In this document: piece after piece, positions 14,838 to 52,451 of the stretch
Layout: each line of letters opens with the position of its first letter
Position numbering within the stretch: position 1 is the first letter of the stretch
Source of the DNA: Proteromonas lacertae
Lineage: Eukaryota
DNA: 64,000 nucleotides
Reading direction: 5' to 3'
Assembly: GCA_002245135.1 (NCBI GenBank)
Contig: NGBS01000872.1
Span: 124,001 to 188,000, forward strand
Notes under the pieces: generated by a model
Seen by the model: only the letters and a program-made list of their open reading frames with translations
Told to the model about the DNA's origin: nothing
Database searches by the model: none
Translations under genes and position numbers: made by a program

Positions 14838-17800
14838 CTATGGACATTCTGTCAACCATGCAAAACGAGGGAAGATCAATTTTGTATAATAAATAGCTCC
14901 TTCCTCAAATTGCAACTCAGAATTGAACTTAAGTTTAGATTTTTCTACTCCTTGGATATATATTGATTTTACATGTTCATTTTGTATCTTTTTATTGTTG
15001 AACATTAAATTAGTACATTGTATTAAATACAAAGCGATTTCTTGAGTATCTTGGAATAAATCTTTAACAAGAGGATAAGCTAATTTGCATTTCTTAGATA
15101 TACATTCTTCTATCACCTCTTTTTCCAACTCTTTATTAAATTCATCTAATTTCGTATAAGGCATTACACTAATTATTGATAATAGCAAGTATTTAATATT
15201 AACAGTATTAGCTGGAGCATCATATGAGTTTAATCTACTATATATCTTCAACATTTGTCTAAATTGACCATTAATACTCTTCATCTTCAAGACTTTCTTA
15301 ATATCATAAGCAGATAAATACATATTACACGGATCACTCTTATCTTTCTTCATTCTCTCTATTTCATCATCAATGATCTTCTTCAAAATAAGATATGTTA
15401 TATTATTGCTTACTATATAATCCATTAAAGCAGTCCATATCTTATATGAAATAATCTTTTCAGCATCAGCAACTCCTCCATTATGATACATCAATGGTTC
15501 AATTGGTTTCTCTTGAATATCAGCTTGTTTTAATGGATATACACATCTTTCACCTGGTGGTACATAATCACTAGATGCTGAAGTATCTAATGCCATTTTT
15601 TCAAATTCTTCATATGCAATTTCACCATCTCCATTAGAATCATAGATTGATATTAAATATTCTACTTCTTTACGACTTACTATGAAACCAGCACTTATAA
15701 ATAACTATATATATAATAATAATAATAATTAATATATACATGATAAATAACATATTTATCCATAGATCTTCTTTGGGCTAAATCCATTCTTTTAAATGCT
15801 GATTTAATCTCCTGTTTACTAAATGTTCTTTCAGTAATATCTGTTTCATCAACTTCACCATTATTATAACTCACTTCATTGATCTGTATAGCTTCATAAT
15901 CAAATTCACTTATATCTTTCTTATTCGTTCTATATCTCTCATCATAGCAATGAGCTGTACGATGTCTTTGAGGGAATTTCACTCCATTTGGTCCTTGGAA
16001 ATCTAACTTCAAATGTACTTCACCATGTGGACGATTCTGCTTCCACATATTCTCTTCTTTACCTAATGAAACCCACACATCAGTTGTACCTGTCTTATAA
16101 GTTGATTCTAATTTCAATTTACCTGTACCAATTAGTTCATTTTCTTCAGTATGTTTATCTACATGATATACTTCTACTATCATCATATCATGGTCAATTA
16201 TATCATATTTATAAGTCTCATTCCAGATCGGATCAGATCCTTTACTACCTTGATCAATAGCTTGAGTTTGAAAGAATGGACTGAATAAATCATCTGATTT
16301 AATACCATTAGCTATTACTTTACAATAAGGTATGAGTTTATCTTCATTCTTTAATGATAAATCTCTTGCTTCTAGTATATCTACTGTTAATATTCCAGCT
16401 GGATAGAATATAATAGACAATTCTATTTCTCCAATACAACTATCACCATTAAACACTTTGTAGAACGTATCAATTTCACCAGCTTCATACATAATGGACA
16501 AAATATCTAATTGACAATCTCCGAGTAATACTTCACCACTGTCAACACTAAATAATGACATAACAAAGTAGAAAAAGAATTAAAGAAACATAATTGTTAT
16601 ATATTATATATATTAAAATGATATGAAATTAGTCCAAGTATTATTGTTTATTACAAATGTATATTTATCATTATTATTAAATCTACCTGCATAACCATCA
16701 GTATTCACTATATCACCTCTTAATATTTGATTCTCACCAAACTATATAATAATAATAATAATAATAATATACTTTAAATTCTACACAAATATTTGATTTC
16801 TTAGTTACATCTAATAATCTCAAATTTTTATATCTCTTCAATTCAACTTCAATATATCCTTTCCTCAATGGTGTAAATAATGGTTCAAATCGTATCTTAC
16901 CATCTTTCTTCTTTTCACCAGAATCATTATATCTAAATAAATCAATTGTTTTTACATTTATATTCTGAGTATTACTGATTATATCTAAGATAGATAATCG
17001 ACATTCTCCCAATAATTCATCCGTTTCACTATCTATTATTTGTATATGCATATTCATATCATTGTTATTAATGAAATTACGAGGATTCTTTATATCAAAT
17101 GTTAAGATTTCTTTATTAAATTCAGGTGTAACTGTTGTATGTGCAAATATTGAACTTTCTTTAATTATTTTATTTGCATTATGACCTATTGATATCTGTA
17201 CATAAGGACTGATTAATCTGTTGGGACTATACAAATTAATAGCTTTAATTAATGTTATTGTTAATCTTCCAGCTCTTATATGGTATTTCTTTATTAATTC
17301 ATCAATTGTTAATACTCCATTAACTCTATTAGAACTTACTGTGGAGGTTGAATCTATAGTGGTGGATTCTTCAATGGATGTTCCACTTTCACTATTACTA
17401 CTGTTGCTGGTTGTCGTTCTAGTTCTAGTTGTGGTTGATAAAGTAGTTGTATTGTCATTGGATAAGGATTTTTTACTATCACTTTTGGATATTGATGTTG
17501 TTCTGGATGTTGTGGTTTGTGGTATTGGTTTATTCTTTGATGAAGTTGAAGAAGAGGAAGACTGTCTTTTAATCTCATCTTCTGATTCACTTTTCTTATC
17601 TTCTTCTTCTTCTTCTTCTTTTTCTTTGGGAAATTCTTGTTTCTTTTCTTCTGATTTTACTGAAGAACTCTTGTTTCCTGATTCTTGTGACGATTCACTT
17701 TTTCTTTCATCTGATTCTTCAGAATGTGAATGATTTTCTTGTTCATCACTATGATTACTTTTCTTTTCTTGATTTTCTATTTCTCTCTTTACTTCTTCTC

Positions 17801-18010
17801 CATCACTACTCTCTGATCCTATATTTCAATTATTAACATTTAAAAATATACCAGATAAACTTCCAGATCTAGATAATTCAGAACCACTGTATGAAGTCCC
17901 AGATCTACTAGCACTAGTTTCAGATCCAGAACTAGTTGAACCAGATGAACCTATAAATAATATCACAATATAATCTTACCAGAAACTGAGGATCCGCTAT
18001 TATCACTCAT
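14838..18010 (-). CDS. Multi-C2-domain protein with EF-hands
   Basis: Three C2-like segments (e.g. GILTVDILEARDL...PIWNETY) and an EF-hand (IDSNGDGEIAYEEF). Ser-rich/acidic N-terminus from ATG 18010. Confidence 0.8.
16568..16624 (-). other. U12-type AT-AC intron (57 nt) in the C2-domain gene
   Basis: 5' ATATCATTTT, branch TTTCTTTAAT, 3' ...TCTAC. Removal joins WTNF|FVMSLFSVD in frame and removes an in-frame TAA; no short GT-AG solution restores the frame. Confidence 0.75.
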
Positions 18011-18234
18011 TTTTTTAATACGTTGGCTCGAACAGAGTGGTTTGAAAGTTTTAGTCCTTTCTATTGATTTATATTTTGAAAATTAAATGTTCATAAAATG
18101 TTTACGTGTGATAAATAGATCATAATAACTATTCTTATATGTTTAGCAGGTAAAGAACTAAGCAAAGTAAGAATTTAAATTTTGTGGTCAACTCAGATCG
18201 TGAATCCTCAAATCAAGTTTTGCATTTTTCTTTT

Positions 18235-19632
18235 ATGACACAAAACATAAAACCAATACGTATATTCCATTATGCTTATGCTTTTATAGCTGACCAAATT
18301 GGGAGGGAACAATTTGAAAAGTATCTCAAAGAAAATCCTGCCGAAAGACAATTACTTTATGCCTTTGAAACAAAGCTGAAAAGAAAGTATTTATATATTG
18401 AGTAATGTATAGTGAATTTCAAAGATCAGTTACTATCGCTCAAGGAACATTACAGACAATGATTGAAGTTGTATTATTAAATCGAATATTAAATTGATAG
18501 ATCAAATCATTTGAGAGAATAAAGCCAAATCCTTCCAAATTATTAGGATATATACTTGCTTTAGGAAATCATCTAATAAATTCCAATCCCAAACGTATAA
18601 ACATATATTATATAAAATAACCAATAGAATTCATTGTATCAAATATTGTAAGAATAATACTAAAACTCTCAAACGAAGCAATCATTGACAAACACAACGA
18701 ATTTGAATCACCTACTAAAACACCAATATCAACTCCCAAAACTACTACACCACCAGGTTCTCAAACCTTTACGTTCGCCTATCAATCAAAAGAAGAATTA
18801 CCAGCCTTGACAAGATCCTTTTCAGTAAGGGCAATTCATTTTGACCAGCCTTATCATGGTATTATTAAGAAGATAGTTGGATTAGTGACAGATTTTGCTA
18901 AAGAGATATTGACAGATGATGATGTTGATTTATCAGCTGAAAATACATATGCTACTGATCATATACATCAAAAGTATATATATAATTATTATTTATAGTG
19001 AAATTATAATGACATTTGGTTATTCAACATCAGTATTAAGATATTTAAAAGCAGCTGCAATTCATAGAAACTTTGAAGTGTATGTTGTAGAATCATCACC
19101 CAGTTATTGTGGTAGAGAAATGGCTAAAGATTTAATAAAAGCGATGGATATTAAAAAGAAAGTAACAATTACATTAATCCATGATAATGAAGTATATACA
19201 ATAATGGCAAGAGTGAATAAAGTAATAGTTGGTGCTAGTTATGTAACTGCTGATGGTGGATTCTTTGGTTTAGCAGGAATGAATATAGTTACACTCTCAG
19301 CTAAAGCATTTGCAGTTCCTGTTATTTGTATTGTTCCAATCTATAAAGTATCTATATTTCTATTATATTAATAGATGTGTCCTTTGTATTGTCATGATGT
19401 TGATTCATTTATTGAAACATTATCTCCATTACAAATCATGTCACAATCTGAGATGGATTGTCCTCTTGATAAAGTTACATTTATTAATCCAGCATTAGAT
19501 TATGTTACTCCTGATAATATTTCTTTATATATAACACCAAGTGGTGATGCTTTACCTTCTTATATATATAGAATATTAAGTGATTATTATTCATTTGAAG
19601 ATGAATTAAAAATATCAACTACAATGGATTAA
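18235..19632 (+). CDS. EIF2B2: Translation initiation factor eIF2B beta subunit
   Basis: DHIHQ.EIIMTFGYSTSV, FEVYVVESSP, IMARVNKVIVG, NPALDYVTPDNISLYIT...PSYIYRILSDYY. Confidence 0.9.
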
Positions 19633-19751
19633 TTATTATTGTTATTATTAATCTAATAAAATTTTTGTTTTGATGATTTTTGTTTTGAAAATAAAAATAA
19701 CATAAAATAAAAAAACCTAGTAACTAAATTGATAAATAAAATAAAAGAATT

Positions 19752-21180
19752 CTATTTATTGTCAATAGAAGAATATAATAAAATATATCCTGTTGAATCA
19801 ATTTTACCATCTTTCAAACAAGTTCCATAAGGCAAATAGGGATAATAATTAATCTATTATAAATATACATAATATATATACATTAACATTATGATCATCT
19901 AATATAATATACTTATTTCCATCATCTACTGTACAAACATAATGACCTGATAAACCACTATGACCAATATGAACAATTGTTCCACTTAATATATAATGCG
20001 GTGAAATACAATCATCATCTAAACTCTGTATTGGAACTCTTAGACTGTATGGATATAAAACTCTTGAACATAATTTCTCCAAGTCTTTTATCTTATCATT
20101 ATATTTGAATCTTTTAATATGAATAATTAGTAATGGAGGTAGTTTTGATATTCTAATTGATTTTTCAGCATCTTGAAGACTATTACATTTCTGACAGAAA
20201 AATTGATTTGATCCATTCAGATGTTCAACATCACAATACTTTCTTAAAGAATCAGTCAAAGATACATTTGGAACAACATCAACAGATAAATGTAGAAAAG
20301 TCTCTTTAGAAACAGATATATTATTGCAAGTCAAACATTTCACAGTTGATACAATAGTACCTTCAAATAAATCTTCAATAAATGTCTTTATATTATTACT
20401 ATTAGTTGTTGTTGTTGTTGTTGTTGTTGTAGAATTATTTGTCAAAGTTGGTGATGATGTTTGAGGAGGAGTGTTTGATATATCAATTGGTATTTCGATT
20501 TCTGGTTGTAAAACACATGACTTTGACTGCGATCCAACTAATGCATTCCTATCATTATCCGATGATGGAGGTGGTAGTGATCTTGGTGTATCATTATTAC
20601 AGTATCTATCATTCTCATCAACTTCAACTTCAACTTCCTCTTCTTCACCTCCTTCTTCTTCACCTTCACCACTATTCTCTTGTTCTAGTTGTAGTGTAGT
20701 ATCTTTTAATCTTCTTTTACTATTATTACTATGATTATTCTTTTCTTGTTTGGTTATTGATGATTTTATTGTATCTGAAATATCATTTAATAAATACATT
20801 AAGAATTCATGTGCATCTTGTTGTTCTGATGAGCCAAACATGTGTGATTTATTAAATATTGAAGATATAAATGATCTAGGGCTCACATAAGTGTCATTAT
20901 CAACATAAAGTACTGACAATTCATTAAAAGTCTCATATAAAAGATATCCTAAATCTTCTTCATCTCCATCATTAGCTCTTTCCTTTTGAATATGACAATA
21001 TTGCTCCTCTATCTTAATTCTAAATGAGTCACAATAATAAAGCAATTGTATTACTGAATTCGCATAACAGGTACATCCATAATTTCTAAGACCTATGTAG
21101 AACCTTTTTCTTGGAGGAGGTAGTTGTTTTACTTGTTTATGAGAATTAATGTTATTAGGTATAGATACAGAACCTCCCAT
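19752..21180 (-). CDS. Ubiquitin-specific protease, USP12/46-like
   Basis: GLRNYGCTCYANSVIQ Cys box, QQDAHEFL, HIGHSGLSGHY His box; N-terminal MGGSVS resembles a myristoylation motif. Confidence 0.85.
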
Positions 21181-21358
21181 TTAGATAATAATGTGCAGAT
21201 TGTCTATTCACTACAATGGAAGTGTATAAATCATAAAATTCAAAAAATATAAATTAGTAACGGATTATTTTCTTTCGTTTTTAAAAACACTCAAAATCTT
21301 TTTTAACTACATACCATTCACAACAATTTCATAAAATTTTTATGTACATTATAACTAT

Positions 21359-21541
21359 TTAACTAAAAAAGCCAAAAAAACTCCACGAACCTTGTGAAGA
21401 ATCATCTTTGGAATTATAATCATCATTATCATCATCTGCTGACATTAATCCAGCAGATCTCATCACATTTATTTCTTTTAACAACCTATTAACATCTCTT
21501 TCCAATTCAGCAATTCTTTCAGATCTAATTATCAAAATATA

Positions 21542-21579
<38 letters not shown>

Positions 21580-22514
21580 CTTTTGTGTTAGACTATCCAT
21601 CAACACTTGTTCCATTGTTTGATACTGTTCCAAATCACTATTATTCTTTTGTATAATCCTTTTAGATTCTTCTAATTTCTTTAATAAATAATTATAATCA
21701 TTTGTATCAGTATTGTTGTTGCTACTATTGCTGTTGTTTATTTGTATTGATAATGATGGAATAAATGATAATGTAGTAGGCATAGTATAAGATAAATTAT
21801 GCTTTATATTTCTATTATTATTTGATTTGTTAAGTTTTGAATCGTTGATTAATTGTAGTATTTGTTTTTGACACATTTCATATTGTATTTTCAACTTATT
21901 AAACTGTTCATTTAGCTTATTATATTCTATTTTATCCTTATGTGATTGTTCTTGTAATATTGACTGATATTCTGTATTCGTAACCCAATCAATACCATTT
22001 ATATTGACAGGAGGACCTAGTAAAGATAATGTAGATTGATATTGAAGATGTAAGTCTGATAATGATTGAATAACTCTTTCTATAGCTTCTTGTTGTGGTT
22101 TAACGACTGATGGAGATATGGATATAGTTGTATCTATTACATTGGATATTCTATTTATTAGTGTTTTCTCTAAATCACAGATTGAATTGTAGTATCTTTC
22201 TAACATATCCCAGATTGTAGTAGGATCGATCTTAAAATATATATTAATATTATTTATACACTTTGGACAAAATCTAGGAGTGAGGTTTGAGTATTTTCAT
22301 CTACTATTTCTGTATTTGATAATTTTAATACTTCTTCAGTTTGTGTGGAATTTTCATTTAGTAAATTAACTATTTCTGGATATTTTATTTTGAAGTTTTG
22401 TTGAATATTACTAACTAAATGCTTTACTTCGTCCATATTTTCCTTATATAATGAGAATGCATTCTTTCCATAGGCTAACAACTGTGAGTTGTAGGATTTG
22501 AATTCTACAGACAT
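21359..22514 (-). CDS. Hypothetical coiled-coil protein
   Basis: ORFs 22254-22517 and 21532-22206 linked by GT-AG introns; last exon ends GSWSFFGFFS*. Confidence 0.55.
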
Positions 22515-22694
22515 CAAAAAAGTGCAATTTATTAAAAATTAAAAATAGGTTTATCAAAATTTTCGAAACACCATCATATTTTCATTCTTTGATATACAAT
22601 GATATTCACTTTCATTTTCTTGTTTTTTAAAGTTTTATGTTATACAAACACAACATATGTTAAATAAAATGAAAAGAATTATATAAATGTAAAC

Positions 22695-23704
22695 CTAAAA
22701 AACAGATCTTTTTATAACTAATTTTTTATATCTAGCATCCATATACTTATCCCTAACAGAAGGATCTGGAGAAATACTATATATAGAAGCTTCTTTTTTT
22801 CTTCTATTATGCTTCATTGATCGATAATAACTTGATAATACCGAATAAACATCAACTTCTCTTGTTGTTAATTGCAAAGCAATCATTTCAGGAAATAAAT
22901 TCTTTAATAATTTTTCTCTGAAGTAAAATGCACCTTCTACTAATTCTTTAATTTCATGGCACATTAAAATAAAACAACTTTTATTAAATTGGTATTTTGG
23001 AGGTAATGCATATTTATGAATCATATCTTCAAATGTTTTGGGAAATTTATCAATATATTGACCTGCTTCTTTTCTTAATTCACAATATTCATCTGCATCT
23101 ATTATTTCATTACAATTTGTATCTAGTAGAACAAACAGTAAATGAACTAATTCTGTTCTTGAAATAAACATTATATAACATGTTATTAATAGAAATTCAC
23201 TCCAATCTACATTGTTATTATAATCAATATCATATAAAAAAAATAGAGCTTCACCAAAAAATTGTTCTTTTAAGGTTAATACTTTTAAAAAGTGAGGTAA
23301 ATCAAAGGTATTTTTACCTAATCCACAAATGTAGTGGAAGTATTTATAAATAGTCTGTAAATCTTGAGGTTTTGCTTCTAGTAGTGTAGTGAGCTTCTTT
23401 GCATCATCTGAAAGTAAGTCTATTGGATTATCGAAGCAAATAAACTTATATCTTAAAAATGCTGGTGGCTATATAATGTAAAACTCAATAATAAATACTT
23501 GCCAACCATTCTTCACTGTTACATCCATTGCTTCAAATGAACTAGCAACAGCAACTAAACATATTATATCTCATAAGAATACACGAAATATTTCTGTTCT
23601 GTATAATAGCATCATTATCCGGAACAAATTCTTCAACCTAAATCGAATTGAGTAACCTTTTCTTCTGTTCCACTGTTTTTAGAGATCTTTCTACTGTCGT
23701 TCAT
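22695..23704 (-). CDS. EF-hand protein (calcineurin B/recoverin-like fold)
   Basis: DIDYNNNVDWSEF and LDTNCNEIIDADEY loops. Start codon uncertain. Confidence 0.6.
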
Positions 23705-23814
23705 AATTTAATGTCTATAATCTAATGAACATGTGATTTGAAGGTTTATAAAAGTTTTGAAACGCTTAAAAAGCTTGACTATGTCAAACCTTTAGATGTT
23801 TAAATAAATCCTTA

Positions 23815-25332: not shown

Positions 25333-25435
25333 TATATAATTATCTTTTTTTAATGTTATTTATATTTTTCTGTATAATGTCTGTTTTTTGTTTGTCTAAT
25401 TCTTTATAAAAATATATTCGTTTCACTATTATTAA

Positions 25436-26120: not shown

Positions 26121-26196
26121 TTATTTATTTATTAAAATATATATTAAGAAGAAAAACTACAATAAAAAAATGAAATTAATAATACTACATTAATAT

Positions 26197-26904
26197 TTAT
26201 TTATCATCTACTTTAGCATCATCAAGAACGGTATCATTCAATAAATCCATTACTGATGTATAAAAGTCTTTATTTGGTGAATTTTTATATTGAAAACCTA
26301 ATGAACAAGCTTCTTTAAACACTTTCACCACATTTGTACCATCTGCTGCTGAAGCATAATGTAAAGGTAAACCATGTTCTGATGCAAATCGGAATGACTT
26401 TGTAGTTACTTCGTAATTAACATCTATTTTGTTTGCTACAACTAAACAGGGAATCTGTTCACAGTAATTTCGTAATTCTTTGTACCAATCTTCAAGATGT
26501 TTGTATGTTAATTTACGAGTAACATCAAAAACAAGAATGCAAGCATGTGCTCCAAAATAATAAGAAGGATGCATACTTGAAAATCTTTCTTGACCAGCTG
26601 TATCCCAAAAGTCTATATATAATCATTACAATAAGCTAAATAATACCAACTAAAACATTCTTTCCTTCAATATCTATCTCGTGACGAAATAATGTAAGAG
26701 CGTATGTAGATAACTATATATAATACAAATATAGAATACTTGACGTGGATGATAGTCATTCATAAGGTATCGTTCAACCAATTTTGTTTTACCAACAGCA
26801 GAATCACCCAAAAGAATAACCTTAACATCAGCCTCCTTCTCAGTATCTCCTTCCACTATAATAATTTATTATATGATGTACAATATACATTTAGCTTCTG
26901 CCAT
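26197..26904 (-). CDS. RABL2: Rab-like GTPase RABL2
   Basis: VKVILLGDSAVGKTKLVERYL, FWDTAGQERFSSMHPSYY, HACILVFDVTRKLTYKHL, ANKID, SAADGTNVV are typical RABL2 signatures. Confidence 0.88.
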
Positions 26905-27003
26905 ACTACTTATTCAAAAATTGATTTTTAAATCCAAAAAAGCTTGAGAAGATAAACTCGACTTGAGGTAATCAAACTTATTTATTATTTTTGTTTATAA
27001 TTC

Positions 27004-29677: not shown

Positions 29678-30494
29678 TCATCGCTTATAAATACATTGCC
29701 AAAACCAATTCTGTCTTCTCTCTACCTTTCTAGTATTCCTATCTTTAGGATCAATTCGTTGAAATTGATACTCTTTTGACGAGAATGGGTAAATTATTAA
29801 GGATATTTCATTTCAAATTAATTAAATCTCAAAAAAGATATATTTTCTTCCCAATCCCATTCCCACCTAATACTATTATCAAATGCATAAACAGCATCCC
29901 AATCATCCTATAGATATTAGTTACAAAAAACATGGAAATATACTTCAGCTTCAAGTGCATTATAAGATGTCCACACAAATGGAATATTACTATAATATAA
30001 ATCTAATACACTTTCCTTCCAAGTATTATATCCCCATATTCCAGGATGAAATGCAACAGCTAAAGTACAATTATGAGGATTCTATTAATAAACAAATTGC
30101 AATTATATACTTCAATGAAATATTCATGATAGAACGATTTATAACACTTTATTGAGTTTATACCATCAGGAAGGTCTGATTTATCAAACACAATATCGCT
30201 TTGCAAATTTGGTCCAATTATCACCATATTAATTTCTTTACAGCCTGCCAATAATTTACTTAAATTTTGGAATTGTTTGGCAATTGTAGAAGATGTTGCA
30301 CCTTCACTAAACAACATTACAATAAACTGAATACTATGAATCACATCCTATTAAATGTAAATATACAATTTGATCTTTATAATCAATTTGCAGTTTGTTC
30401 ATAGCACCTTTCAATAATTAAGGAATTCTATGATTGCAGCATAATGTATATAAAAAGGATATGACCAAAGTACATTCTCTGGTGGTGAGATCAT
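29678..30494 (-). CDS. MSS51 C-terminal-like domain protein (no MYND finger seen), containing two U12-type introns
   Basis: Spliced YLHLIGCDSYEG, MVIIGP, FYHEY, VAFHPGIWGYNTW, FVWTSYNALEAEDD, EENPFSS, QNWFW follow the MSS51/ZMYND15 C-terminal motif order. Confidence 0.7.
29789..29841 (-). other. U12-type AT-AC intron (53 nt)
   Basis: 5' ATATCTTTTT, branch TATCCTTAAT, 7-nt spacer AATTTAC. Removal restores the frame and the E-N|P-F-S motif. Confidence 0.9.
30410..30462 (-). other. U12-type intron with probable AT-AA termini (53 nt)
   Basis: 5' ATATCCTTT, branch TTCCTTAAT, 7-nt spacer TATTGAA; in frame with ATG 30494. An AT-AG end at 30408 works only with a different ATG. Confidence 0.8.
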
Positions 30495-30596
30495 TAATAT
30501 AACCTTCTATTTTGAGAGAAATTTTATTTTGAATAATTTCACACCCTTTTTCAAGCCTTAACTCAAGTTTTTAATTCTGTGTTTATATTGAAAAAT

Positions 30597-32066
30597 ATGT
30601 CCCTAGCAGTAATTAATGATAAATTTCATTGTTTCAAATCTGCAAATATCGAGTTAATAGTTGAAGAAATAAAGAAATATCCAGGTTTACCAGAAATAGA
30701 CAATTTAAAAACTATATTCTATATACCTTCTAAAAAAATAATTTACAATGAACTTAAAATGTCTGGATGGGGAATAAAGAATAATATTTTTGGTAGAAGA
30801 ATTCCTGTCAAAATAATAAAAGGTGATTACTTTCCTCAAGAAAATTCATCACTCTATCAATATTTCGCAAAGGAAATGTACTGTCATTTGAAAGAGATTG
30901 CTAATGGATATTTACAACAGATTAAGTATTTATCCAAAGTTAGTATGATATTTTTATGTTTAATGTTGTGAATAGAAAATGACCAAAATAACATAATGAA
31001 AGAATTTAAATATCACATGAAATGTATAAGTCGAATAACATTAGAAATTTCTTCAGCAAAATTTCCATACCACCAGGATATAGATTGTATATGTTCTTAT
31101 ATATCAGAAAATGGAATAAATAGTCCAATGAAGATGGTAGATTATTTGTTTAAGTCATATAATAAAATGAAAATTTCAACTCAAATAGAAGAATGGAGTA
31201 ACAACATGAAATCTTTGTTGGAAAGTAAAAAGGTGTTGACATTAACAGAATTATCAAATATTGTTCATTTATTATTCCATTTACCTCCTTATAATGGCTA
31301 TTATATAGTTTTTAATCATCCATTTGCTAGATTATATACACGAATTATTCTTGTCTTTGAGTTTTTCTATTCTTTATTATCTGGTTCTTTACGTCTTAAT
31401 GTAAGTAATAAAATATTGAAGGAATGTTTAGAATATATTTATACAGTTATTCCTTTATTAACAGAAGAATTGATAAAGTTATTTCCTAGATTGAACGTTT
31501 TATCAACAAAACGATTTTTAAGCAATTACATTAGTGATACTTTGTTTACTTATCTTTATCATTTGATACAACCTTTATTTATGAATTATTTTGGTATATT
31601 ATAATTTTTATTATTTATTTTTATAATTAAAATAGAAAAGAGAGATAAAACATTATATCAATATTTACACAATTTAGTTTCAACAAAATATATTTATAAT
31701 GCTGATAAGATTTTCCCATTAATGAATAATAATAAATTCCCAAATAAGTCAGTTATTAACTTATTACAACAAGGTTTAAGTGAACCAATTCCAAATTCCA
31801 AAATCAGTATATTTGGAGAGATCTTTAAAATAGTTCATAATATAATACCTGATGATAATTTAGAATTATTTTCATCACTTTTAATTAATCATCTGTTGTT
31901 ATTAGATGAGTCATATCTTACCAATTTGATCTCTTCTATGGAATATCTGTGTTATACTTCATATTTTCGAAAGGATTTGAGTGATACTCAAATATCAGAT
32001 TTAGAGATTATTATTGCTTTGTATCAAGTTTCAATTGAAACAATAGAAAAACTTATCCCAGTTTAG
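30597..32066 (+). CDS. Hypothetical protein, possibly with a degenerate VPS9-like C-terminus
   Basis: Three ORFs joined by GT-AG introns; only weak resemblance to VPS9 helices. Confidence 0.5.
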
Positions 32067-33792: not shown

Positions 33793-34235
33793 ATGGCAGA
33801 ATTTCAAAACGGGAAGATTAAGTGGTACAGTATTTCAAAAGTATAAAATATCATTGTTTTATAAATCTATAGAGATACGGATTTATTACAAGAGATAATG
33901 GAGAAGGAGATGTATTTTTTCACAGAAGTACAGTTATATTACCTGATCCCCTAAGAATACCAAAGTTAGAACCAGAATATCCAGTACAATTTACAATTAA
34001 GACAACTGATAAAGGTGTTGAAGCTGAACAAGTCAAAGGAGTAAATTGTGATCTTCCCATGTGTGAAGTAACTGATATTCACAGAGTAGGTGGTGGTTAT
34101 AGAGGTCGTGGTGGTTTCAGAGGTAGAGGAGAAAGAGGCAGAGGCAGAGGTCGTGGTGGTTTTAGAGGTAGAGGTGGCAGAGGAAGAGGTGAAAAGAATG
34201 AAGGTGAAACTTCTGAACCTGCTCCAGCCAACTAA
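33793..34235 (+). CDS. Cold-shock domain protein with RGG tail (copy 1)
   Basis: GKIKWYSISK|RYGFITRDNGEGDVFFHRS plus RG-rich C-terminus. Confidence 0.9.
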
Positions 34236-34788: not shown

Positions 34789-35299
34789 ATGGCTGAACAA
34801 ACATTATTAGGTAAAATAAAATGGTACAATGTTCGTAGAGTATAAATAAGGTATTTTGATATTTTTATAGAGATATGGTTTTATTGTAAGAGATGATGGT
34901 CAAGGAGATGTTTTCTTCCATCGTACTGCTGTAAAACTAACTGATTCTATGAGAATTCCCAAATTAGAACCAGATTTTGCTGTACAATTTACTTGTGTAA
35001 AAGCAGATAAAGGTATGGAAGCAAAAGAAGTATTAGGTGTAGGAGGTCAAGATATTCCAGTGTTAGAAGTAAGTGAAATCCAAAGAGGAAGAGGTAGAGG
35101 TAGAGGTAGAGGTGGAAGAGGCAGAGGAAGAGGCCGTGGCAGAGGTTTCTATCGTGGTGGATTTGGATATTATGGTGGTTTTAGAGGTGGAAGAGGTAGA
35201 GGAGGTAGAGGTAGAGGTCGTGGTAGAGGTGGAAGAGGTAGAGGCCGAGGTGGAAGAGGTGGTAGCCAAGCCCCAGTAACAGAAACCCCTCAAAATTAA
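34789..35299 (+). CDS. Cold-shock domain protein with long RGG tail (copy 2)
   Basis: GKIKWYNVRR|RYGFIVRDDGQGDVFFHRT plus (RG)n; same intron position as copy 1. Confidence 0.9.
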
Positions 35300-37182: not shown

Positions 37183-37361
37183 AATGAAAATAATTATTTA
37201 ATTTGTATTATTTTATATATTCTATTCTCTTTATTCATTTTTTTTATTTGTTGGTGTTTATTTGTTGAATAATGATTAAAAGAAAAGAATAATAAAAGAG
37301 AAGTAGGCTTGATTCTTATTTGACAATCCAAATTTTGATTTTCAATTTAATCAACACCATA

Positions 37362-39490
37362 ATGAAAATATCTAAAGATTTAGGTGATAATGGGTATTTA
37401 TGTATGTGATATATTTGATATAGACTATTATTGAATATGATCGAGTTTGGTTTGAGTGATTTTAGTTTGAGACTAGGAAATGGTGAAAATCTGAATGGAA
37501 TCAAATCAATTTTGTGTTATTCAAATGAAATATTTCGAAAAGTGTTAGAAGATCCTCAAGTAGAAGATCCTGTTCCTTTGTCAGAAAACATAAGTAAAGA
37601 AAGTATGTTGATGTTATTCCAATACTATGGAGGTGGTGTAGTAGAAATCCATGAAGAAAATGTTTGTAGTTTGCTGTTATTGAGTTTATATTACAATGAG
37701 AAAGAATTATTTAATAGATTAAAAGATTATACAATAAATCACATGAATGAAATAATTGTTAAAGATTTACTAAACAATGTAATGAATGTAGAAATGTTGA
37801 ATGAATTATACAGTTTATGTGATCTATATATTCGAGATAATCTATATATGATGATAGAAACTGAAATAATGAATGAAATCTGTTTAGATGGTTTAAAACA
37901 CATATTGAGTTTAGATAATGTATTGATTGTAAATGAGAATATGTTATTGAATAGTTTGTTGAGATATTATAAAATGAGGAAGAATGAGATCGAAAAATGT
38001 GTAGAAAATAAGAATGAATTTAATGAATTACTTGAATATGTGAATTGGAAAAAAGTGAATTATGAAATAGTTTCATTTGACGAATTGAAAGAATTTGAAA
38101 ATCTTCAAGAAATCACAATAAAGTTATCAAAATGTAATGTTAGTCATAAATATTGTTCAATTCCGAAATTATCCAATTCTAAATTCCAATCAATACTTCA
38201 AAAATACTATTTAAATCCAGAATTACTGAATAGATTTGAAAGTATAATTTATTATTGTTATTATTATTATAAATAGAAGAAAATCTATATGAGATGTACA
38301 AAATAGTTACAGATGAAGATATAAAGCTAATATTAGAATGTGATGATATAAAGTTGATAAAAATCCTGTTAATAATTCTAATGAGATTAAAACATGAATA
38401 TGAAATTCCTAAAAATCAAAAATGGAAATCGCTTATTGATATAGCAAGAAGTATAGAGAATGATAATCATAAAAATGAAGAAATGAATATGGAAAGTCTA
38501 TCATATTTCATTGATGGTATAATATTATATAATATTTTTTATTGAAATAGGTAAATGTGTTGATATAATTTGTGAAACATGTGGATATGAGATTCTTTTA
38601 AAACTGTTGAATGTTGAATCATTATCTAGTGACAAATGTGATTTAATAATCAATTATGTAAAAGAAAATGAAATGATAGAAAGTGAAGAAATAATAAATT
38701 AGTGATAAAAGAAATAATGAAAGAAGTAAAGACTAGATTATTAATGCATCCATTAACAATATTTAAATATGAAAGAAATGAATATGAATATGGAATTAAT
38801 CAGAATATTCCAATAAAATGTGAATTTGATGGAGAAGAGTGTGAATTTTCAGTTAAACCATCATTACCAAATGGTTTAATATTGAATGAGAAAACAGGTG
38901 AAATAAGTGGAAAAGTGAATGAAGAAATGAATAAAAGTGAATATGAAATAGAATGTAAACAAATGAATATAAAAAAGACATTCAAAATATCACTAGAAAT
39001 AATAAAAGTGATATTCATTAAAAATTATAAAAGTGGTGGAATGTCAATAAGTGAAAATGGCAGAAAATTAACATGTAATGATGGTAATTATAACCATTGT
39101 TATTTGAATATGAAACTAGAAAAGAATATTTATCATTTAAGATATAAATCTACATTTATTAACAACCATCGTCCAGGATTTGGAGTTTCAGCAATCAATA
39201 ATTACAGTGGATATGAATATTATAAACATCAATCATGTTTAACAATATGGATTCAAAATTCAACCCAATTATTTGGATCAAACCAAGTTACTAATCCTAA
39301 TTATGCAAACCACAATGGAGATGAATATGAGTATGTTGTGAATATGAAAGAAAGAACAATATCAATAAAACAAAATAATGGAGAAGAATATCAAATATTC
39401 AGAAATATTCCTTCACCATTATATCCGTTTGTTGCTATGGATTATGATAATGAACATATCGAATTATTATCAGTGTTAATTGAAGATTAA
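37362..39490 (+). CDS. BTB/BACK - putative Ig (He_PIG-like) - SPRY-like protein, copy 2
   Basis: BTB (SDFSLRL...KSILCYSNEIFRKVL), BACK-like helices, FSVKPSLPNGLILNEKTGEISG (He_PIG-like), SPRY-like end (PLYPFVAM). One frame break at about 38700. Confidence 0.7.
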
Positions 39491-39536
39491 AACAAAATAT
39501 TTCATTTTTATTATTTTTGTTGGATTTCCTTCATAA

Positions 39537-39653: not shown

Positions 39654-39800
39654 AAAAAAAACTAGTCAGTTTGAGATAAAGTATAACAAAAAGAAGTGAT
39701 ATAATTTATGGGATTTTGAGAAAAGAATATTTTTTCTTTTCTATTTTTCTTCATATATTTCAATTCATTTTAATTTTTATTACATTCATATTAGTAATCA

Positions 39801-41603: not shown

Positions 41604-41706
41604 AAGTGTTTTTTTCTTTTATATTCCATTATTATTATATATTTACATTGTTTTTTGTGATTAATTTGTTGAAAATAATGAAATACATAATTTAAACAAG
41701 TAAAAA

Positions 41707-42627: not shown

Positions 42628-42700
42628 TGTGAAAGAATGAAGAAAAGAAAAATATTCAAGCCTTTCTCAAACATTTATTTTATTTAAATTTAAAATTTGA

Positions 42701-43491: not shown

Positions 43492-43680
43492 TACTATCAA
43501 TATATTTATTTTTTGATTATTTTTTGTGAATTTGTTTTATTTTATAAATACTGTTGTTGAATTGTTATTTATCAACATTCATATATTCATAATGTAAATA
43601 ATAATTGAATATGAACAACCAGAGCGGAAGGTTTGACAAACTGTCGTGTTTTTTTATCCTTTATTTTCTTGCGTATAATA

Positions 43681-44789
43681 ATGAATTTAGATATTTTAAA
43701 TGCATCAGTATCATTTATTATGTTATTTAAATAGAATGCACCAGATAATGAAGTTCCAGAGAGAGAATGTAAGATAGTTTGTTTGAATTGTTGTTAGTTT
43801 GGAAAAAATACAATCCATTTAGATATATAAGGTTTTATCGTTTAAGTGCACCAATAATTCCATATAATTTCGAAGAAGATAATAGCATTATCGTTTTAGA
43901 TGATGTGTGTAAGACCTATGTTTCTGAAAAAGGTACAGATTTAAAAATAATCGTTAATGATAAATATTTTAGGTGGTAAAATAGCATTACAAAATGTTTC
44001 TTTTAAAATCAAGAAAGGTGAATTTGTGATTATAATGGGTCATTCAGGTTCTGGTAAATCTACGCTATTAAATATAATTGGTACAATTGATCCGCCAACT
44101 CAAGGTAATGTAATAATTGATTCAATTCCAATAAATCACAAAGTATAAAAACATGTATTTATGTCTTATTAGACTAAAGAATATGTAATGGCAAATATTC
44201 GTAGAGATACAATCGGATTTGTATTTCAAAGTTTTAATTTAATCCCCAAACTAAGTGCAATTGAAAATGTAGAACTTCCAATGTTATTACAAAATAAATT
44301 AAGTCACAGTGATAGAAAAGAAAGAGCAAAACAGTTATTAGATGAAATGAAATTATCTCATCGATATGAACATACACTAGTAGAAATGAGTGGAGGTGAA
44401 CAACAAAGAGTTACAATCGCAAGATCACTAGCTAATAAGTTTATATATTATTATTATTATGAAATAGTCCAAAGATATTATTGTTAGATGAACCAACAGG
44501 TGATTTAGATGAATATTCCACCTATTTAGTAATGCAGAAGTTGATGGAATTGAATAATAATGGACTAACAATAGTAATGGTAACTCATAATGAAACTCTA
44601 CAGAATTTAGCAAATAGATTGATATTTATGAAAGGTGGTAAAATAGATCATGAAAGAATAGTCACTAAAGAAGAAAGAGAAATATATATAAAACATATTG
44701 ATGGATATATGCAACAACATGATGGTTTCTTCCCTGATAATCCAGACGATTTTCAAATACCAACTTCAAGCGAAAATGTTTGTGAATGA
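43681..44789 (+). CDS. Stand-alone ABC ATPase of the LolD/MacB type
   Basis: [55 protein letters not shown]; no TM domain. Confidence 0.88.
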
Positions 44790-44946
44790 TTATTGTGTTT
44801 TTAGATTTTTTTTTCTAATTAACATTCTCCTAATATTAAAATAGTAAATAATTTGTTATAATAATTGTTTGTTTATAAATAACCCTAAAAACAAACATCA
44901 ATATAGATAAATCAATAGTATAACATATAATTCCGATAAATCAAAA

Positions 44947-45013
44947 GAACACACCATCAAATATACATCACCTTCTCAGGTTTACATGTATATCATCATC
45001 AAATGTGTGCTTC
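44947..45013 (-). promoter_or_regulatory. Eukaryotic SECIS element, type II
   Basis: GAAGCACAC-auuug-AUGAU-GAUAUACAU-GU-AAA-CCU-GAGA-AGG-UG-AUGUAUAUU-UGAU-g-GUGUGUUC: lower stem, AUGA/GA core, 9-bp upper stem, AAA 11 nt from the core, apical mini-stem. Confidence 0.9.
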
Positions 45014-45090
45014 CAACCTCTCTCATTACCAGCTATATATGTCATACTAATCGAATATATATATAAGTATTTAATAATAATTATAATAAT

Positions 45091-45784
45091 TTATGATCTT
45101 AACTTCTTCCAAGTCTCTTTAATTGATTTTAACTTAGTAATAATGTTAGCATTCCAGAACACACTGATTCCCAACAATATAAAACCAGCATAAGTAAATA
45201 CAACAGTAAATATCCATCCAACTACACTCAAACAACCATACACTTCTTCATGACATCCAAATCTATATTGGTTAGATCCTTTCATTTCTGGCCACCATTG
45301 GAGATCTTGCATTACATGTCTTACTTGGTCAGATAATACAAGCGGGAATGCGATTAACATACATACTAAAGGTCCCCATACTTGGAATTTACTTCCCTTT
45401 CTTCGTGCCTTTCCTCTCCATACTAAATACAACACCACAAGTAACATTAGTAAAGTGATTGCAAAACTAATGTAATGACCCACTGAACGAGCAAGGTTGG
45501 AAGTGCTTGCTCCTACAATGGAAAATAAAATAGCAGGCCAACATCATCCGCCGATTAAAGCGGGAATACTGAAAACTAATGTAGCTATTGAAACAATTCT
45601 AAGGAGTTATAACTGATTAAAAATACAATGATCTTCTTTCCTCATTTGGGCCTCTCTCTTCGATTACCGGCTTCTTTCCTCATGCTCCTCCTTCACATCC
45701 TGTTGAAGTAGAGGGAGCCACTGAATAGACTTCCTCTTCAACAGGTTCCGGCTCATCGAGCTGGATCATAAACTTATTACTCAT
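45091..45784 (-). CDS. Multi-pass membrane selenoprotein with two in-frame UGA codons (MSP-like), 221 aa
   Basis: ATG 45784, one 28-nt intron (45599-45626), TGA at codon 35 (45680-45682, GCEGGAUG) and codon 71 (45544-45546, LIGGUCWP), continuous frame to TAA 45091, SECIS about 80 nt downstream. Confidence 0.85.
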
Positions 45785-45945
45785 AATTAGTGCTTGCTCT
45801 CTTTCTTTTTAAATAAAAAATAAAATGAATTTGTGTCTCAAGCAATTGACTTGAGTTCAGTTATCATACGAAAATGATTATTGAGAAAAATATCAAGAAA
45901 AAGGAGAAAATCTACATAACATCATTAACGAATATTTACAAATTA

Positions 45946-46813
45946 TTAATGTAGATTCAAATTAGAAAAAAATTCACTTCTAGTTCTTACATCTCTTTTA
46001 AAACATCCTAAAACTGAACTTGTGGTGGTGGTGCTTCCTATATTTATAATTAATCAAGAAAAATAATACCAGGCTTTTCAACTCCTCTCATTGTCATACA
46101 CATGTGACTATATATTTAAATAAATGAATAACAGATATAGCAATACGTAGCTTCAATAACAACACCAACCCCCAAAGGATGAATGGTATTAAATATGCAC
46201 TGAGCAATCTGTCTTGTTAATCTCTCTTGAATTTGTAATCTTCTTGAGTATGTCTCAGATATTCTAGCTAATTTACTAATTCCCAACACTTTTTTATTTG
46301 GAATATATCCTATATGAACTTTCCCAAAGAAAGGAAGGATATGATGTTCACAAAAGCTATATAATGGAACATCTCTAACAATAACCATCTCATCATGATT
46401 TTCATCGAAGATAGCCTCATTTACAACAGTCTATTTAATTATATATTTGTGTTTTTATTTACGCTGATTGATTCTTTGTAACCTTTTGTGCAAAAAAGTA
46501 ATGCTTTTGCCATTCTTTGTGGAGTTTTTATCAATCCATTTCGTTCAGGATTTTCTCCCATCAACTATAAAAGGAAAGAGTATTTTAACTAAAAATACTT
46601 CTATTATCTTTTTAATATGTTTGGACATTTTCTTGACTCGCTTTTCTTCCGATAAATTTGAATATTTGGACTTTAACAATTAAAACAAGAAATATACTAC
46701 AAATTGTTCACTTTCTGATGAATGTTCATCTGTATCTTTTGGTTGGCTATTATTATGTATTTCTAATGTTATTAATACGTTTTATTCTCTGTAGCCTCTG
46801 ATTTCTTTGACAT
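45946..46813 (-). CDS. GCH1: GTP cyclohydrolase I
   Basis: [54 protein letters not shown]. Confidence 0.95.
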
Positions 46814-46915
46814 TTAAAATACAATGTTTGATACAAGTTTGGCTGAAAAATGTCCAATCATAGTAAATGAACCAAACCATGTTCGATAATTTTCAAAAAC
46901 CGCGAAATTAAAATT

Positions 46916-48478
46916 ATGGAGCCAGGTCAATTATTCACTCCAGAACAGATTAATGCACTGGATTACTTTATTAATGAATTAAAGTGTCCATTATGGTAAG
47001 AATAACTGGTTTAATATGTAGTTCTAACATAATGAATGTTCCTAACACACTTCCATGTAGTCATAACTTCTGTCAGTATATCTTAACTCTATTAGTATAA
47101 TTAGAGAGTGTATTTTTACTTATCTATCAAATAATAACGTTTGTCCACAATGTAAGCTTCCTACATATCCTAGAGAAATAAAGCACAATGCAATTCTTGT
47201 ATTAACAGCATGTTAATTGTTTTAGGATAATATAATTCATTCTTTCAAAGATTTATTAGGAGTTTTTGATGATTGGCGAAGTGATATTAAATCAACACCT
47301 GACACTCAAGCTATACAAGAAGTAACACATAGGGCTGATGATCAAATGGAAGAGCTACAAGACGAAGAGAATATAATAGCTTTTTTAAAGAGTATAATCA
47401 ATCATTCTATCTTTTTTTTCTTTTTTGTGAATAGAAAGTTTAGAAACAAGAACACCTTCGACTACTCAAGGAACACCTACACAATCTCCATACAAACCAA
47501 GACATTCAAATCCAACAACACCTAATACAACACATACAGAAGTAACAACTCCATTAGTATATAAAACACCAAAAACTGGTGAAACAACACCATTACCAAG
47601 TTTAATAAGAAGTGCATTGAACAATATACAATCATCTCCACAACAACAACAACAACAACAACAATCACCTCCTCCTCCTCCACAAACACCAGAACAAACA
47701 ATTCAACCACAGAGTATACTTCAACTAATATTAAAATACTTTCAATAATAATTTATATATCTTTTTTTTATTATATATATATTTTTTGTTTTATCTAATC
47801 TTCTATAATCATAATTATAATTCATATATATATATATATAATATTTATAGGAATGTGTATAATGCCGACTGGATTGAATACTCAACAGATCAACTTATTA
47901 AAAAGAGCTGGATATTTATATTCATTTGATATAATCTATTCATTCAACAACAAAGAGAATGAACCAAAAGCCTACACATATAATAACAAATGTAAAACTT
48001 CGTAGATGTTTAAGAACTTATAAATACATGTTAGGAATATCTTTAGGATGTTGGATATTATCATTTCAGTGGATTAAAGATTTGATGAATAAACATATAT
48101 TTCCTAATGAAATATACTATGAAGTTGTTGGTGATCAAACCTCACCAGCATGTCAAGGTCCTTATAAAGCTAGAACTAGAGATAAAGGCATGAAATTATT
48201 CGAAGGTAAAGAGTTTTTTCTGAATGGACCATTCTCTGGATTACCACAACAAGAATTAGAAGTGTTGATTAATTTAAATGGAGGAACATGTTTGAATAAA
48301 CTTAATAATTCTGCATATATTCTGGCTGATCATAAAACATATGTTTCAAAGAAGAAAATGAAGAATACTCTAGTTGATAGTCTGTGGATATTGGCATGTT
48401 TGAGTGCATATGAAATAGTAGATATTGAGTATAATTATTACTATTTTTATTATATGTAGACCATTTTTAATAATTTAG
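46916..48478 (+). CDS. BRCA1/BARD1-like RING + tandem BRCT protein
   Basis: ELKCPLC...LPCSHNFC..CI...CPQCK; BRCT motifs THII...RTYKYMLGISLGCWILSFQWI, LFEGKEFFL, WILACLS. Apparent 1-nt frame break near 47955. Confidence 0.8.
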
Positions 48479-48692
48479 ATTATTTTTAGCTTTTTAACCA
48501 TCTTTTCATTTTAATGTACTTATTTAATTGATTGTGTATATGTTTTTAGGATAAAATAGTAATTTGAACAACAGCAAAATTTGAATTTTTAAACTATCAA
48601 ACATTTCGGCTTGAGTTTATCAGTTTCAAATTTTTAATTTTCTATTTCTTCAAGTATTCATTCATTTTTTATTTTATTAGTATTAAAAAGTA

Positions 48693-50097
48693 ATGGCAGA
48701 ACCAGCAGCAGCAGCTGATCCTATTCCAACTGGAAGCATAAAAAGAATTGATTTAGATATTGTATTTCATATTCAATTGTAATGTAATAGCCACAACCAG
48801 ATAATATGATGGATATTATCATTGAAAAACTCAAAGTATGCTTTTAACTGTTAGTTTTTATAGATTCTTGATTATGAAACAGAATTTTGTGAACCAAACA
48901 ATGTTCCACCATTCAGTCACATATTTTTCTCAATTCCTTTCTCAAATACTTCTGTACAATCACAATACTTTAATCTTACTGTAACTTGGTTAATGCATCT
49001 TTGTAAGCAAGATTTTTCAATTGGCGAATATGATGATCCAGATACAATGTATTTATACTATATAAGTATAATATTCTATGTATAGTGTTTCAAAATTAAT
49101 GCATACTTTAAAACAAATGGATTTCCCAGGCTCCTTCCCAGCTCAAAAGTTAAAGACACCCTATGGCTATCCAATATGTGCAGTATTGGATTTCCTCTGT
49201 GATACAGCATTAACATTAAAGAATTTCAAATTACCCTCCAAATTAGTCATTCAAGATGAAGAAGAAGCTAAAATGGAGACTTTACTCGATGATACTGATG
49301 AGAATGTAGAAATAGCTGATGATTTAGAATATGATGATGCACCATTGTATATACGATAATTATTATTTCTAAATAGTGATGAAAATGAGAGTAAAATGGA
49401 TGATGTAATGAATACAAGTTATATGGAAGAAGTAAAGAGTGATGTAGATCCATTAAAATGGCGACAAGAGTTAGACAGAGTAGCACCTAAACTAAAACCA
49501 GTCCAAACAGCCAGTACTAAAGAATGGAGAACTCATTTAGAACAAATGCAACAACATACTGAAAATATTAAAGGATTATCAAGTTATACTGACACAGTGA
49601 TGAATAAACTATCAGTGGATTTAGAGAGACAATTGGATCAAATATCTCAAAGAGAAAGGACTTTAACTATTCAATTTAGTAATATAGTGAGTCAATATAA
49701 TGATATTCATAAAGAAACAGAAGATAAAATGTCTGAAATATCTCAACTACAAGAAATTATTGGAACTATCAGGAATGATTATGACATTGTAAAAGATAAA
49801 ATAAAGGAACTTAAAGAGATGATGGGAACTAGTAAAACCTCTACTGGTGATACTGGTCCAATTATGAGAATGAAACAAGCAATATCCGCATTGAAGAAAG
49901 AGATTAATGGCTTAAGTGCTCAAATAGGTGTAGTTAGTCATGCTATTACACAGACATACACTGAAGCTCTTGATGCTTATGAAGATGATTATACTTTGAG
50001 TATTGAGGAGGAAGAGACTTTAGATTTTAGTAGGAATGGTAATAATGATTCTGACAGTGATGATGATGATAGTTATATGTATGGTGGAGGCAAGTAA
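48693..50097 (+). CDS. IFT57: Intraflagellar transport protein 57
   Basis: EKLKILDYE, EYDDPDT, KLKTPYGYPICAVLD, WRQELDRVAPKLK, KEWRTHLEQM, DTGPIMRMKQAISALKKEI...IGVV. Confidence 0.9.
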
Positions 50098-50269
50098 ATA
50101 GATTTCTTTAATTTCTAATATTATATTATCTTGATTAATTAAATTATAGTTTTTAAATAACAATTAATATTGTTTTTTATTATGCTGTGTTTTTTAAATA
50201 TTACAAATAAATACAAACAACAAATGAAAAGAATTTGTTATATTTACACAGTTATAATGTATACTATAT

Positions 50270-50838
50270 TCAATGACGTCTTCTATAGTACATATATAAT
50301 AATGAACCAACTAAAGCAGTTCCAAATATCACTATTGCTCTTGAAAAATCTAATTATCATAAAAATCAATAGAATATACTATCATCTGTTGCTTGGATAA
50401 TAGAATTATACAATTGATTTGCTCTTACATTACCAGGATCTTTCGAAAGTAAATATATCGTTGTGTGTCTTGCATCTTTCAATTTACCTAGAGCGAAATA
50501 CCCACATGCTACTTGATATAAACATTCATTCACTTCATATTCTTGCTTAATTAATTCTATTGTAATTTTATGGTTATAAAGAGATACGTTGTAGAAGTGT
50601 CAATCCTTGAAGAATCAATTTATCATCCCCTGAGCAACATAATGCAGATGCATAGTTAAGAGTTACCTATGATTATAACCTTGAATAATGGATACTGCAG
50701 GATCTCTGTCATCTCTTGTTTGTTCATACATCTGTCGAAGTTTCTAGAATATATATTGAATATGCATACATTTAGGATTTTACGAGATACATGACCTTGT
50801 TCATCAAATGACTCAGGGTTACGCCAGCCGTCAATCAT
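50270..50838 (-). CDS. FIS1: Mitochondrial fission protein Fis1
   Basis: TLNYASALCCS...QGLTLL, ECLYQVACGYFALGK...LLSKDPGNVRA, C-terminal TM followed by YRRRH. Confidence 0.8.
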
Positions 50839-51000
50839 TTGAAGATTAAAATAATATATAATAAATAATCAGAATAGAATATTTTAGAAGACAAGTATTA
50901 AGGCTAACAGTTAAAACTAAAAAAACATCAAAAGTGAATTATTGTAACGGGTATATTTTTAGTATTTTGTTTTTTGTTCTATTTCATCAAATATACAGAA

Positions 51001-52451
51001 TTAATCTATAACTATATTATATCAATAATATTATTCACAAACTGAACAATTTCGTTATCATCAACACTTTGTTGCTTTCCTGTAGTTAGATCTTTTATCG
51101 AAATTTTGTTTTCTTTCACTTCATTTTCACCTATCGTTATGCAGAATCTATCTTTATCATTAGCTGCATTCTAGATATATATATAAATAATAAGCAATAC
51201 TTTAAATTTCTTTCCTACTTTACAATGAATTGATCTTAAATTCACAACAATTCCATTCTTAATCAACAACTGAGATAGTTTAAAACATTTCAACCATATA
51301 TCTTTATTCTTCAAATGATCATTATCATTATTAACAATAGGAATAATACTAATTACATTCAAATTTGGTTTATGAAAATTTTCAATCAAAGAACACAATC
51401 TTTCAACTCCACAAGCACATCCTATACATGCAATATTATTGATTTTATTATTATAATGTTGAAATAACTTATCATATCTTCCACCACCAATAACAGCTCC
51501 ATTTTTACTAACATATTCAAACACAGTATCATTATAATAATCTAATCCTCTTACTAACTTTGGATTATAAACAAATGGAATATTTAATTCCTTTAAATAA
51601 TCTAATAGTGTATTTAGTCTTATTTTACTATTTTGAGAGTAATAATCAGATATTAGTGGTGAATTCTGAATATATTCTTGATCTTCCTTATCTTTTGAAT
51701 CTAATATCCTTAATATGTTATTTCTCTTTAATTTATCTTGACTATTATGAGATAATTTCTCTTTATATTGTGTAAAGTATTGATTTAATGATTTTATATA
51801 GTTTTGCATTGTTTCTTCATCTCCTAATGAGTTAATGTTTAATTGAATAATATCATTTACATTTCTACCTTCAAATATTGAATGTAAATAACCTTGGCAG
51901 AATTGTATTATTTCTACATCACTGGATATATCATCATTACCTATATATTCTAATCCACACTGAGTAAACTCTCTATATCTTCCTAATTGAGGTTTTTCAT
52001 GTCTGAAACATAAACCACTGTAGTAATATTTACATGGTAACACAGTGGAAGTTATAGTCGGTAATAATGAACGTACAACAGCTAAAATTATGATAAATAT
52101 TATATTATTCATACAAGCTGTAAATTCTGGTCTTAATGTGTATTGACTTTTGTTTATTTTGAATGAATACATTTCTTTTTGCACAACATCAGATTCACCT
52201 AATCCTTTGAAATATAATTCAGTAGATTCTATTGTTGGTCTACAAATGAAAAGCTAGAATACGTTCTAATTTCTTGAAATCTATATCTTTTTGCAAGCTT
52301 TGTGAAGTTATTAATCAATTGAACCATTAAGAACCACAATATATTTAAAAAATAATAACAAGGATATAAAACGATGTTTTTCACATTCACTCGGCAAATA
52401 ATCATGCATACCTTTAGCAATGGTGCATATTTTTCTACAAAATAGCTTCAT
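51001..52451 (-). CDS. HARS2: Histidyl-tRNA synthetase, organellar/bacterial type
   Basis: KGMHDYLP, EIRTPTIE, LRPEFTA, FRHEKPQLGRYREFTQ, LVRGLDYY, GGGRYD. Confidence 0.9.
52319..52367 (-). other. U12-type AT-AA intron (49 nt) in HisRS
   Basis: 5' ATATCCTT, branch GTTCTTAAT, 7-nt spacer GGTTCAA. Removal gives in-frame KHRF|LINNFTKLAKRYRFQEIRTP; length is not a multiple of 3, so splicing is required. Confidence 0.85.

Follow-up and report, generated by a model that had tools for sequence, protein, structure and literature searches.

U12-type introns have no pyrimidine tract; their donor and branch sequences are read jointly by U11/U12, and the distance from the branch to the 3′ end guides the choice of acceptor. 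In published work, this distance is an established determinant of U12 splicing with an optimum of 11–13 nucleotides (nt), AT-AG and GT-AC ends are disfavoured (PMC3584512), and AT-AA is the commonest non-canonical U12 end in animals and plants (PMC10639083). The closest described system is that of Blastocystis, where both minor introns and their machinery have been reported; in ST1, 346 of 35,412 introns are minor (PMC5608401), and another analysis gives 253 introns, 77% of them AT-AC and 49% in phase 0, that were possibly gained recently (PMC10639083). Here we analyse a 64-kb stretch of DNA (the window) in which five interruptions of protein-coding genes begin with AT. From their sequence, we put at roughly 80% the probability that these are U12-type introns, likely removed by the minor spliceosome, with a predicted cut after an A-N dinucleotide 7–11 nt past the branch motif and almost no constraint on the last base, the likely host being a flagellated opalinate.

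The original prediction listed four AT-starting introns, and all four are found on the minus strand with the donors and branch-like motifs described for them; a fifth candidate, on the plus strand and ending in AT, had been overlooked. The five are as follows.

16568–16624, minus strand: predicted U12-type intron of 57 nt (AT-AC, phase 0), interrupting the middle one of the three C2 domains in a gene for a C2/EF-hand protein (model 14838–18010); branch motif 16579–16586, 11 nt before the end.
29789–29841, minus strand: predicted U12-type intron of 53 nt (AT-AC, phase 0), the final one in a gene with an MSS51_C domain (model 29678–about 30500); branch motif 29796–29803, 7 nt before the end.
30409–30462, minus strand: predicted U12-type intron located close to the 5′ end of the same gene, preferred reading 54 nt, AT-AA; branch motif 30417–30424, ending 8 nt before the preferred end.
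52319–52367, minus strand: predicted U12-type intron of 49 nt (AT-AA, phase 0) within the gene for a mitochondrial-type histidyl-tRNA synthetase (HisRS; model 50939–52451); branch motif 52326–52333, 7 nt before the end.
10987–11037, plus strand: a further U12-type candidate of 51 nt (AT-AT, phase 0) within the gene for a SET-domain protein (model 8619–11873); branch motif 11021–11028, 9 nt before the end.

Each interruption begins ATATC and its 5′ splice site resembles RTATCCTY (ATATCCTT twice, ATATCCTA, ATATCTTT and ATATCATT), with position +6 deviating in two. A TCCTTAAY-like branch sequence lies 7–11 nt before the 3′ end in all five; it ends in TTAAT and finishes 42–46 nt from the first intron base. 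Retention of any one of them brings a stop codon into frame. The signals separate these introns clearly from the major ones: C at donor position +5 is found in 5/5 compared with 8/166 (Fisher P = 1e-6), and a C-containing TTAAY located 5–12 nt from the intron end in 5/5 compared with 2/166. The proposed U12-type identity is supported.

The intron counts come from a self-written gene parse admitting GT/GC-AG introns plus AT- or GT-starting introns with a U12-like branch. It gave 44 gene models with 166 major and five U12-type introns (the four reported and 10987–11037). These counts are estimates, the parse being ab initio and designed to admit such introns. A strict donor-plus-branch pattern, defined only after the introns were known, matched four times, whereas 100 local Markov shuffles averaged 0.31 matches and one of them reached four; a looser pattern matched 11 times with 7.8 expected. 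The weight of the argument therefore lies with gene context. No GT-type minor intron was seen in the window, where the eight introns beginning GTATC are all 27–39 nt long. Consecutive open reading frames in one frame had raised the possibility of a reassigned stop codon, which was rejected: all three stop codons occur among the nine inspected, of which eight fall within modelled introns and one at a gene end.

Excision restores the reading frame firmly at 52319 and 29789, well at 16568 and according to the gene model at 10987; at 30409/30410 the exact end is ambiguous. In the HisRS gene (Pfam match tRNA-synt_His), removing 49 nt gives a spacing of 30 residues between anchors, a value shared by 105 of the 109 homologues that could be scored (126 proteins collected), and each of the three frame-keeping GT/GC-AG alternatives would delete conserved residues. 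A metagenome scan with the HisRS open reading frame returned 40 loci, all 30–39% identical, with no close relative among them, nor any orthologous locus that would bear on the lineage-specific intron gain which the original prediction thought possible. The MSS51_C domain is recognised by Pfam (E = 1.1e-9) and by an Atlas lead for exon 4 (MSS51_C, 0.85–0.87); Atlas gave no lead for exon 3 and PDB no match for exon 4. Against a profile of 20 homologues (20 of 22 matches, two repeat-rich ones, P0247 and P0248, being dropped), the 53-nt excision at 29789 scores 137.1 bits, five other in-frame lengths score 130.2–133.3 and retention scores 124.7. The 16568 intron is in frame, contains stops and is without a frame-keeping GT/GC-AG alternative; once spliced, the second C2 domain aligns with its two sister domains.

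As had been claimed, these introns form a longer class: they span 49–57 nt, compared with a median of 32 nt for the 166 modelled GT/GC-AG introns, of which 152 fall within 23–45 nt and ten reach at least 49 nt (P = 2.5e-4, computed with 53 nt at 30410). Four of the five are in phase 0 (all five if 54 nt is correct at 30409), compared with 71/166 major introns. The major introns are highly uniform, with 154/166 ending TAG and no clear branch motif. Since 137/166 of them begin GTAT, one base from ATAT, the AT-starting introns might instead be processed by the major spliceosome; U2-type AT-AC introns do exist (PMC1557818), and no minor small nuclear RNA (snRNA) was seen for the organism in the 64 kb examined. 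We regard this as very improbable, given the distinct length class, the C at +5, a branch motif that major introns are without, ends none of which is a firm AG, and the presence of minor-specific proteins in the related genomes tabulated in the literature. The proposed high density, on the other hand, is not established. U12-type introns make up 5/171 modelled introns, or 2.9% (95% confidence interval 1.0–6.7%), which is not clearly above the 1% of ST1; the comparison gives P = 0.027 with five introns and 0.088 if four are counted, and the window itself had been selected for this feature.

The original prediction held that three introns end exactly 7 nt after the branch motif, and that 3′ splice site choice is set largely by this distance with a relaxed terminal dinucleotide. 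The spacing is indeed 7 nt at 29789 and 52319; at 16568 it is 11 nt, in the SET-domain candidate 9 nt, and at 30409/30410 between 7 and 9 nt depending on the reading, so that no single distance holds. For the last of these introns the candidates are 53 nt (AT-AA, as first read), 54 nt (AT-AA) and 55 nt (AT-AG). Comparing the eight residues encoded immediately upstream with ten hand-anchored homologue blocks, the mean BLOSUM62 score is +6.5 for 54 nt, −9.4 for 53 nt and −7.5 for 55 nt; the 54-nt frame scores positively with 7/10 blocks and the other two with 0/10. On this comparison 54 nt, with a spacing of 8 nt, is the reading we moderately favour.

The last two bases of the five introns are AC, AC, AA, AA and AT; that is, A is found at −2 in 5/5, and three ends are other than AC. 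The claimed relaxation is therefore supported for the last base. If roughly a tenth of the AT-starting minor introns in human have a non-AC end (our arithmetic from PMC1557818 Table 2 and the 26% AT-AC share in PMC10639083), 3/5 gives P = 0.009. Distance would operate as a short window of 7–11 nt past the motif rather than as a fixed 7-nt ruler. A-N dinucleotides located 2–5 nt past the branch motif are bypassed in three introns, and at 16568 the AC used is the first A past the motif, 11 nt away. As the spacings vary and early A-N dinucleotides are bypassed, the data fit a rule in which the cut falls at an A-N shortly beyond some minimum distance better than they fit a fixed ruler.

For a wider sample we used the list of all annotated introns of Blastocystis ST1 (Gentekaki et al. 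2017, PMC5608401, S11 Data), which contains 336 rows starting ATATCC, and counted 120 of these by eye (places 1–60, 151–180 and 307–336). The branch motif is followed by 4 nt in one row, 5 nt in 66, 6 nt in 43, 7 nt in six and 8 nt in three, with one unscored, and the introns end AC in 71, AG in 42, AT in four and AA in three. A strict ruler, by which the end is fixed 7 nt past the motif whatever the bases, could draw on this very tight spacing (109 of the 119 scored rows at 5–6 nt), on the two firm 7-nt cases of the window with their different ends, and on the 53-nt reading at 30410, which is also 7 nt and uses the first upstream ATG. It is nonetheless improbable: the spacings of 11, 9 and probably 8 nt depart from it, the A at −2 in all five introns indicates that sequence still matters, and several ST1 rows bypass an AA one base earlier in favour of AC or AG. 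Distance-led choice with a loose end suits ST1 better than it does the window. Some ST1 genes in the list carry three minor introns (OAO18147, OAO17624); the section of PMC5608401 on machinery and introns mentions neither AG ends nor three-intron genes.

Distance dependence and AT-AA ends are already known features of U12 introns, and the mechanism here is the known distance-guided one; what seems unusual is the short spacing and loose last base, apparently common to the lineage. In this scheme the minor spliceosome would cut after an A-N dinucleotide 7–11 nt beyond the branch motif and accept almost any last base, and an A-N closer than about 6 nt would be passed over. A minimum donor-to-branch span (42–46 nt here), needed for joint recognition of donor and branch, may be what makes these introns longer than the ~32-nt major ones. 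The pattern of short spacing, AT-only donors and loose ends may have been inherited in common with Blastocystis.

The host itself is probably not Blastocystis, to which the window had been assigned. An apparently full-length gene for the flagellar protein IFT57 lies at 48693–50097 on the plus strand (426-residue model, Pfam E = 2.8e-37); in Lind et al. (PMC12129017, Table S5), IFT57 has a count of 2 for Proteromonas lacertae and of 0 for 8/8 genomes of Blastocystis, so the flagellar-gene loss that marks Blastocystis is not seen in the window. The best named full-length-type match of the MDH protein is Blastocystis sp. Blastoise (57%). We built a tree of 41 rows (40/120 matches used; three higher-scoring long squirrel or plant entries, P0128–P0130, omitted), in which Blastocystis has a single named row and Proteromonas none. 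There the window shares a 12-row clade (support 100/99) with Blastoise and lies outside the nine-row clade (99/96) that contains it. The GC content is 26.7%, compared with 27.0% in P. lacertae, 21.5–23.1% in tortoise isolates and 39–55% in human-type Blastocystis, and the median gap between gene models is 120 nt, compared with 645–719 in the tortoise isolates. On these grounds a Proteromonas-like flagellated opalinate is the likely host. For P. lacertae, InterPro family counts, which are not curated orthologues, are SNRNP25 2, PDCD7 2, SCNM1 1 and RBM41/RNPC3 4, with 0 of each in Cafeteria (Lind et al. Table S5, PMC12129017). The Blastocystis TGTTTGTT element is scattered in the window with no clear tie to gene ends, as judged by eye.

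Several observations weigh against our interpretation. The sample is only five introns. Rfam at the gathering score gave no match of any kind in the window, minor snRNAs included, and perfect donor and branch pairs can occur by chance, as one at +42226 is a decoy lying antisense to a coding exon. The host placement draws on a single gene tree with a long-branch warning plus gene content. The SET-domain candidate at 10987 has three GT-AG alternatives. At 30409/30410 the 3′ end is ambiguous among three readings: the MSS51 profile fails to separate them, BLASTP of the 36-residue upstream frame of the 54-nt reading gave no alignment with P0259, and that frame contains no plain ATG (30463–30600, minus strand) before the head-to-head neighbour at 30597. 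A near-cognate start or a one-base assembly error could possibly account for the missing ATG. Some of the five, mainly these two, might instead be untranslated sequence, errors of the assembly or GT-AG introns whose borders lie elsewhere; an ATG just past the 30410 interruption would give a protein with an equal profile score, adding to the start-codon problem of the 54-nt frame. We consider this unlikely. At 10987 our own model prefers the candidate U12-type intron to the best GT-AG alternative by 6.7 log units. At 30410 there is a perfect donor and branch with a 46-nt span as in two other introns, family-like residues precede 30462 in the 54-nt frame, and the 53-nt frame has no GT-AG alternative.

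Other features of the window were noted in passing. At 26197–26904 on the minus strand is a Rab-like GTPase (Pfam Ras only; generic Rab/Ran matches in PDB), which may resemble the ciliary RABL2. Four assembly proteins (P0001, P0002, P0121 and P0127) are 81–95% identical to window proteins, so close relatives have been sequenced. A 2.2-kb direct duplication (11955–14132 and 37257–39490, 94–95% identity) spans a BTB/BACK gene together with one for a He_PIG Ig-domain protein; the first of its copies gives a poor parse and is perhaps decaying. On the plus strand, two small genes that resemble each other lie side by side (33793–34235 and 34789–35299); by eye they appear to be cold-shock-domain-like, and they have one intron each, in the same place.

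In the literature covered, which did not extend to the genome paper on P. lacertae (Zahonova et al. 2023), the Gentekaki Fig. 1A logos and the Larue and Roy supplements, we found no statement on the minor spliceosome or U12 introns in Proteromonas, nor any on AT-AG introns in Blastocystis, the single AT-AG passage of one preprint concerning animals. The introns most likely belong to a known class, in a probably unreported host adjoining Blastocystis. The minor introns of Blastocystis are known as odd: they are rich in AT-AC and phase 0 and shorter than any others recorded. Larue and Roy raised the question of a recent gain, for which a flagellated sister lineage showing this pattern would be the outgroup needed. 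If the last base is truly free (about a third of the ST1 introns are AT-AG, an end disfavoured elsewhere), the lineage would offer a natural test of 3′ end choice by the minor spliceosome. Gene finders restricted to GT-AG and AT-AC introns would mis-annotate such genes.

Compared with animal and plant U12 introns (PMC3584512, PMC1557818, PMC10639083), those of the window share an RTATCCT-like donor, a TCCTTAAY-like branch, the lack of a pyrimidine tract, a distance-dependent acceptor and the AT-AA end that is the commonest non-canonical one there. They differ in distance, with an optimum of 11–13 nt there (the source passage gives no measuring convention) and 8–12 nt from the presumed branch A here; in subtype, GT-AG being the main U12 subtype there and unseen here; and in non-canonical ends, which human and mouse show in ~5% of their U12 introns and the window in 3/5.

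The likeness to Blastocystis ST1 is closer (PMC5608401, PMC10639083). In both, the introns start with AT, are compact yet longer than the major class and have the branch motif near the end; many ends are non-AC (49/120 ST1 rows), phase 0 is favoured (49% reported, 4 or 5/5 here), and some single genes carry several minor introns. The 25 listed ST1 rows starting GTATCCTT are all 29–33 nt, the size of major introns, which suggests that ST1, like the window, has few GT-type minor introns or none. With 109/120 ST1 rows at 5–6 nt and 42/120 ending AT-AG, short spacing and a free last base look lineage-wide. The differences are that window introns are 49–57 nt long (ST1 mostly 37–42 nt), that their spacing is 7–11 nt (5–6 nt in ST1), that their donors are more degenerate (ATATCA and ATATCT begin 0 and 3 ST1 rows) and that the window host retains IFT57. 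Non-AC ends are AA or AT in the window and mainly AG in ST1 (AA/AT 3/5 compared with 7/120, Fisher P = 0.003), an excess that would follow, with n = 5, if the last base were nearly neutral and tracked AT content. It is conceivable, at somewhat less than even odds, that Opalinata share a derived minor spliceosome with AT donors only, an acceptor that needs just an A at −2, an end set by a very short branch distance and no regard for the pairing rule of first and last bases. The last base would then drift with composition (AC/AG in GC-rich ST1, AA/AT in its AT-rich relative), and the phase-0-rich set would predate the Blastocystis split.

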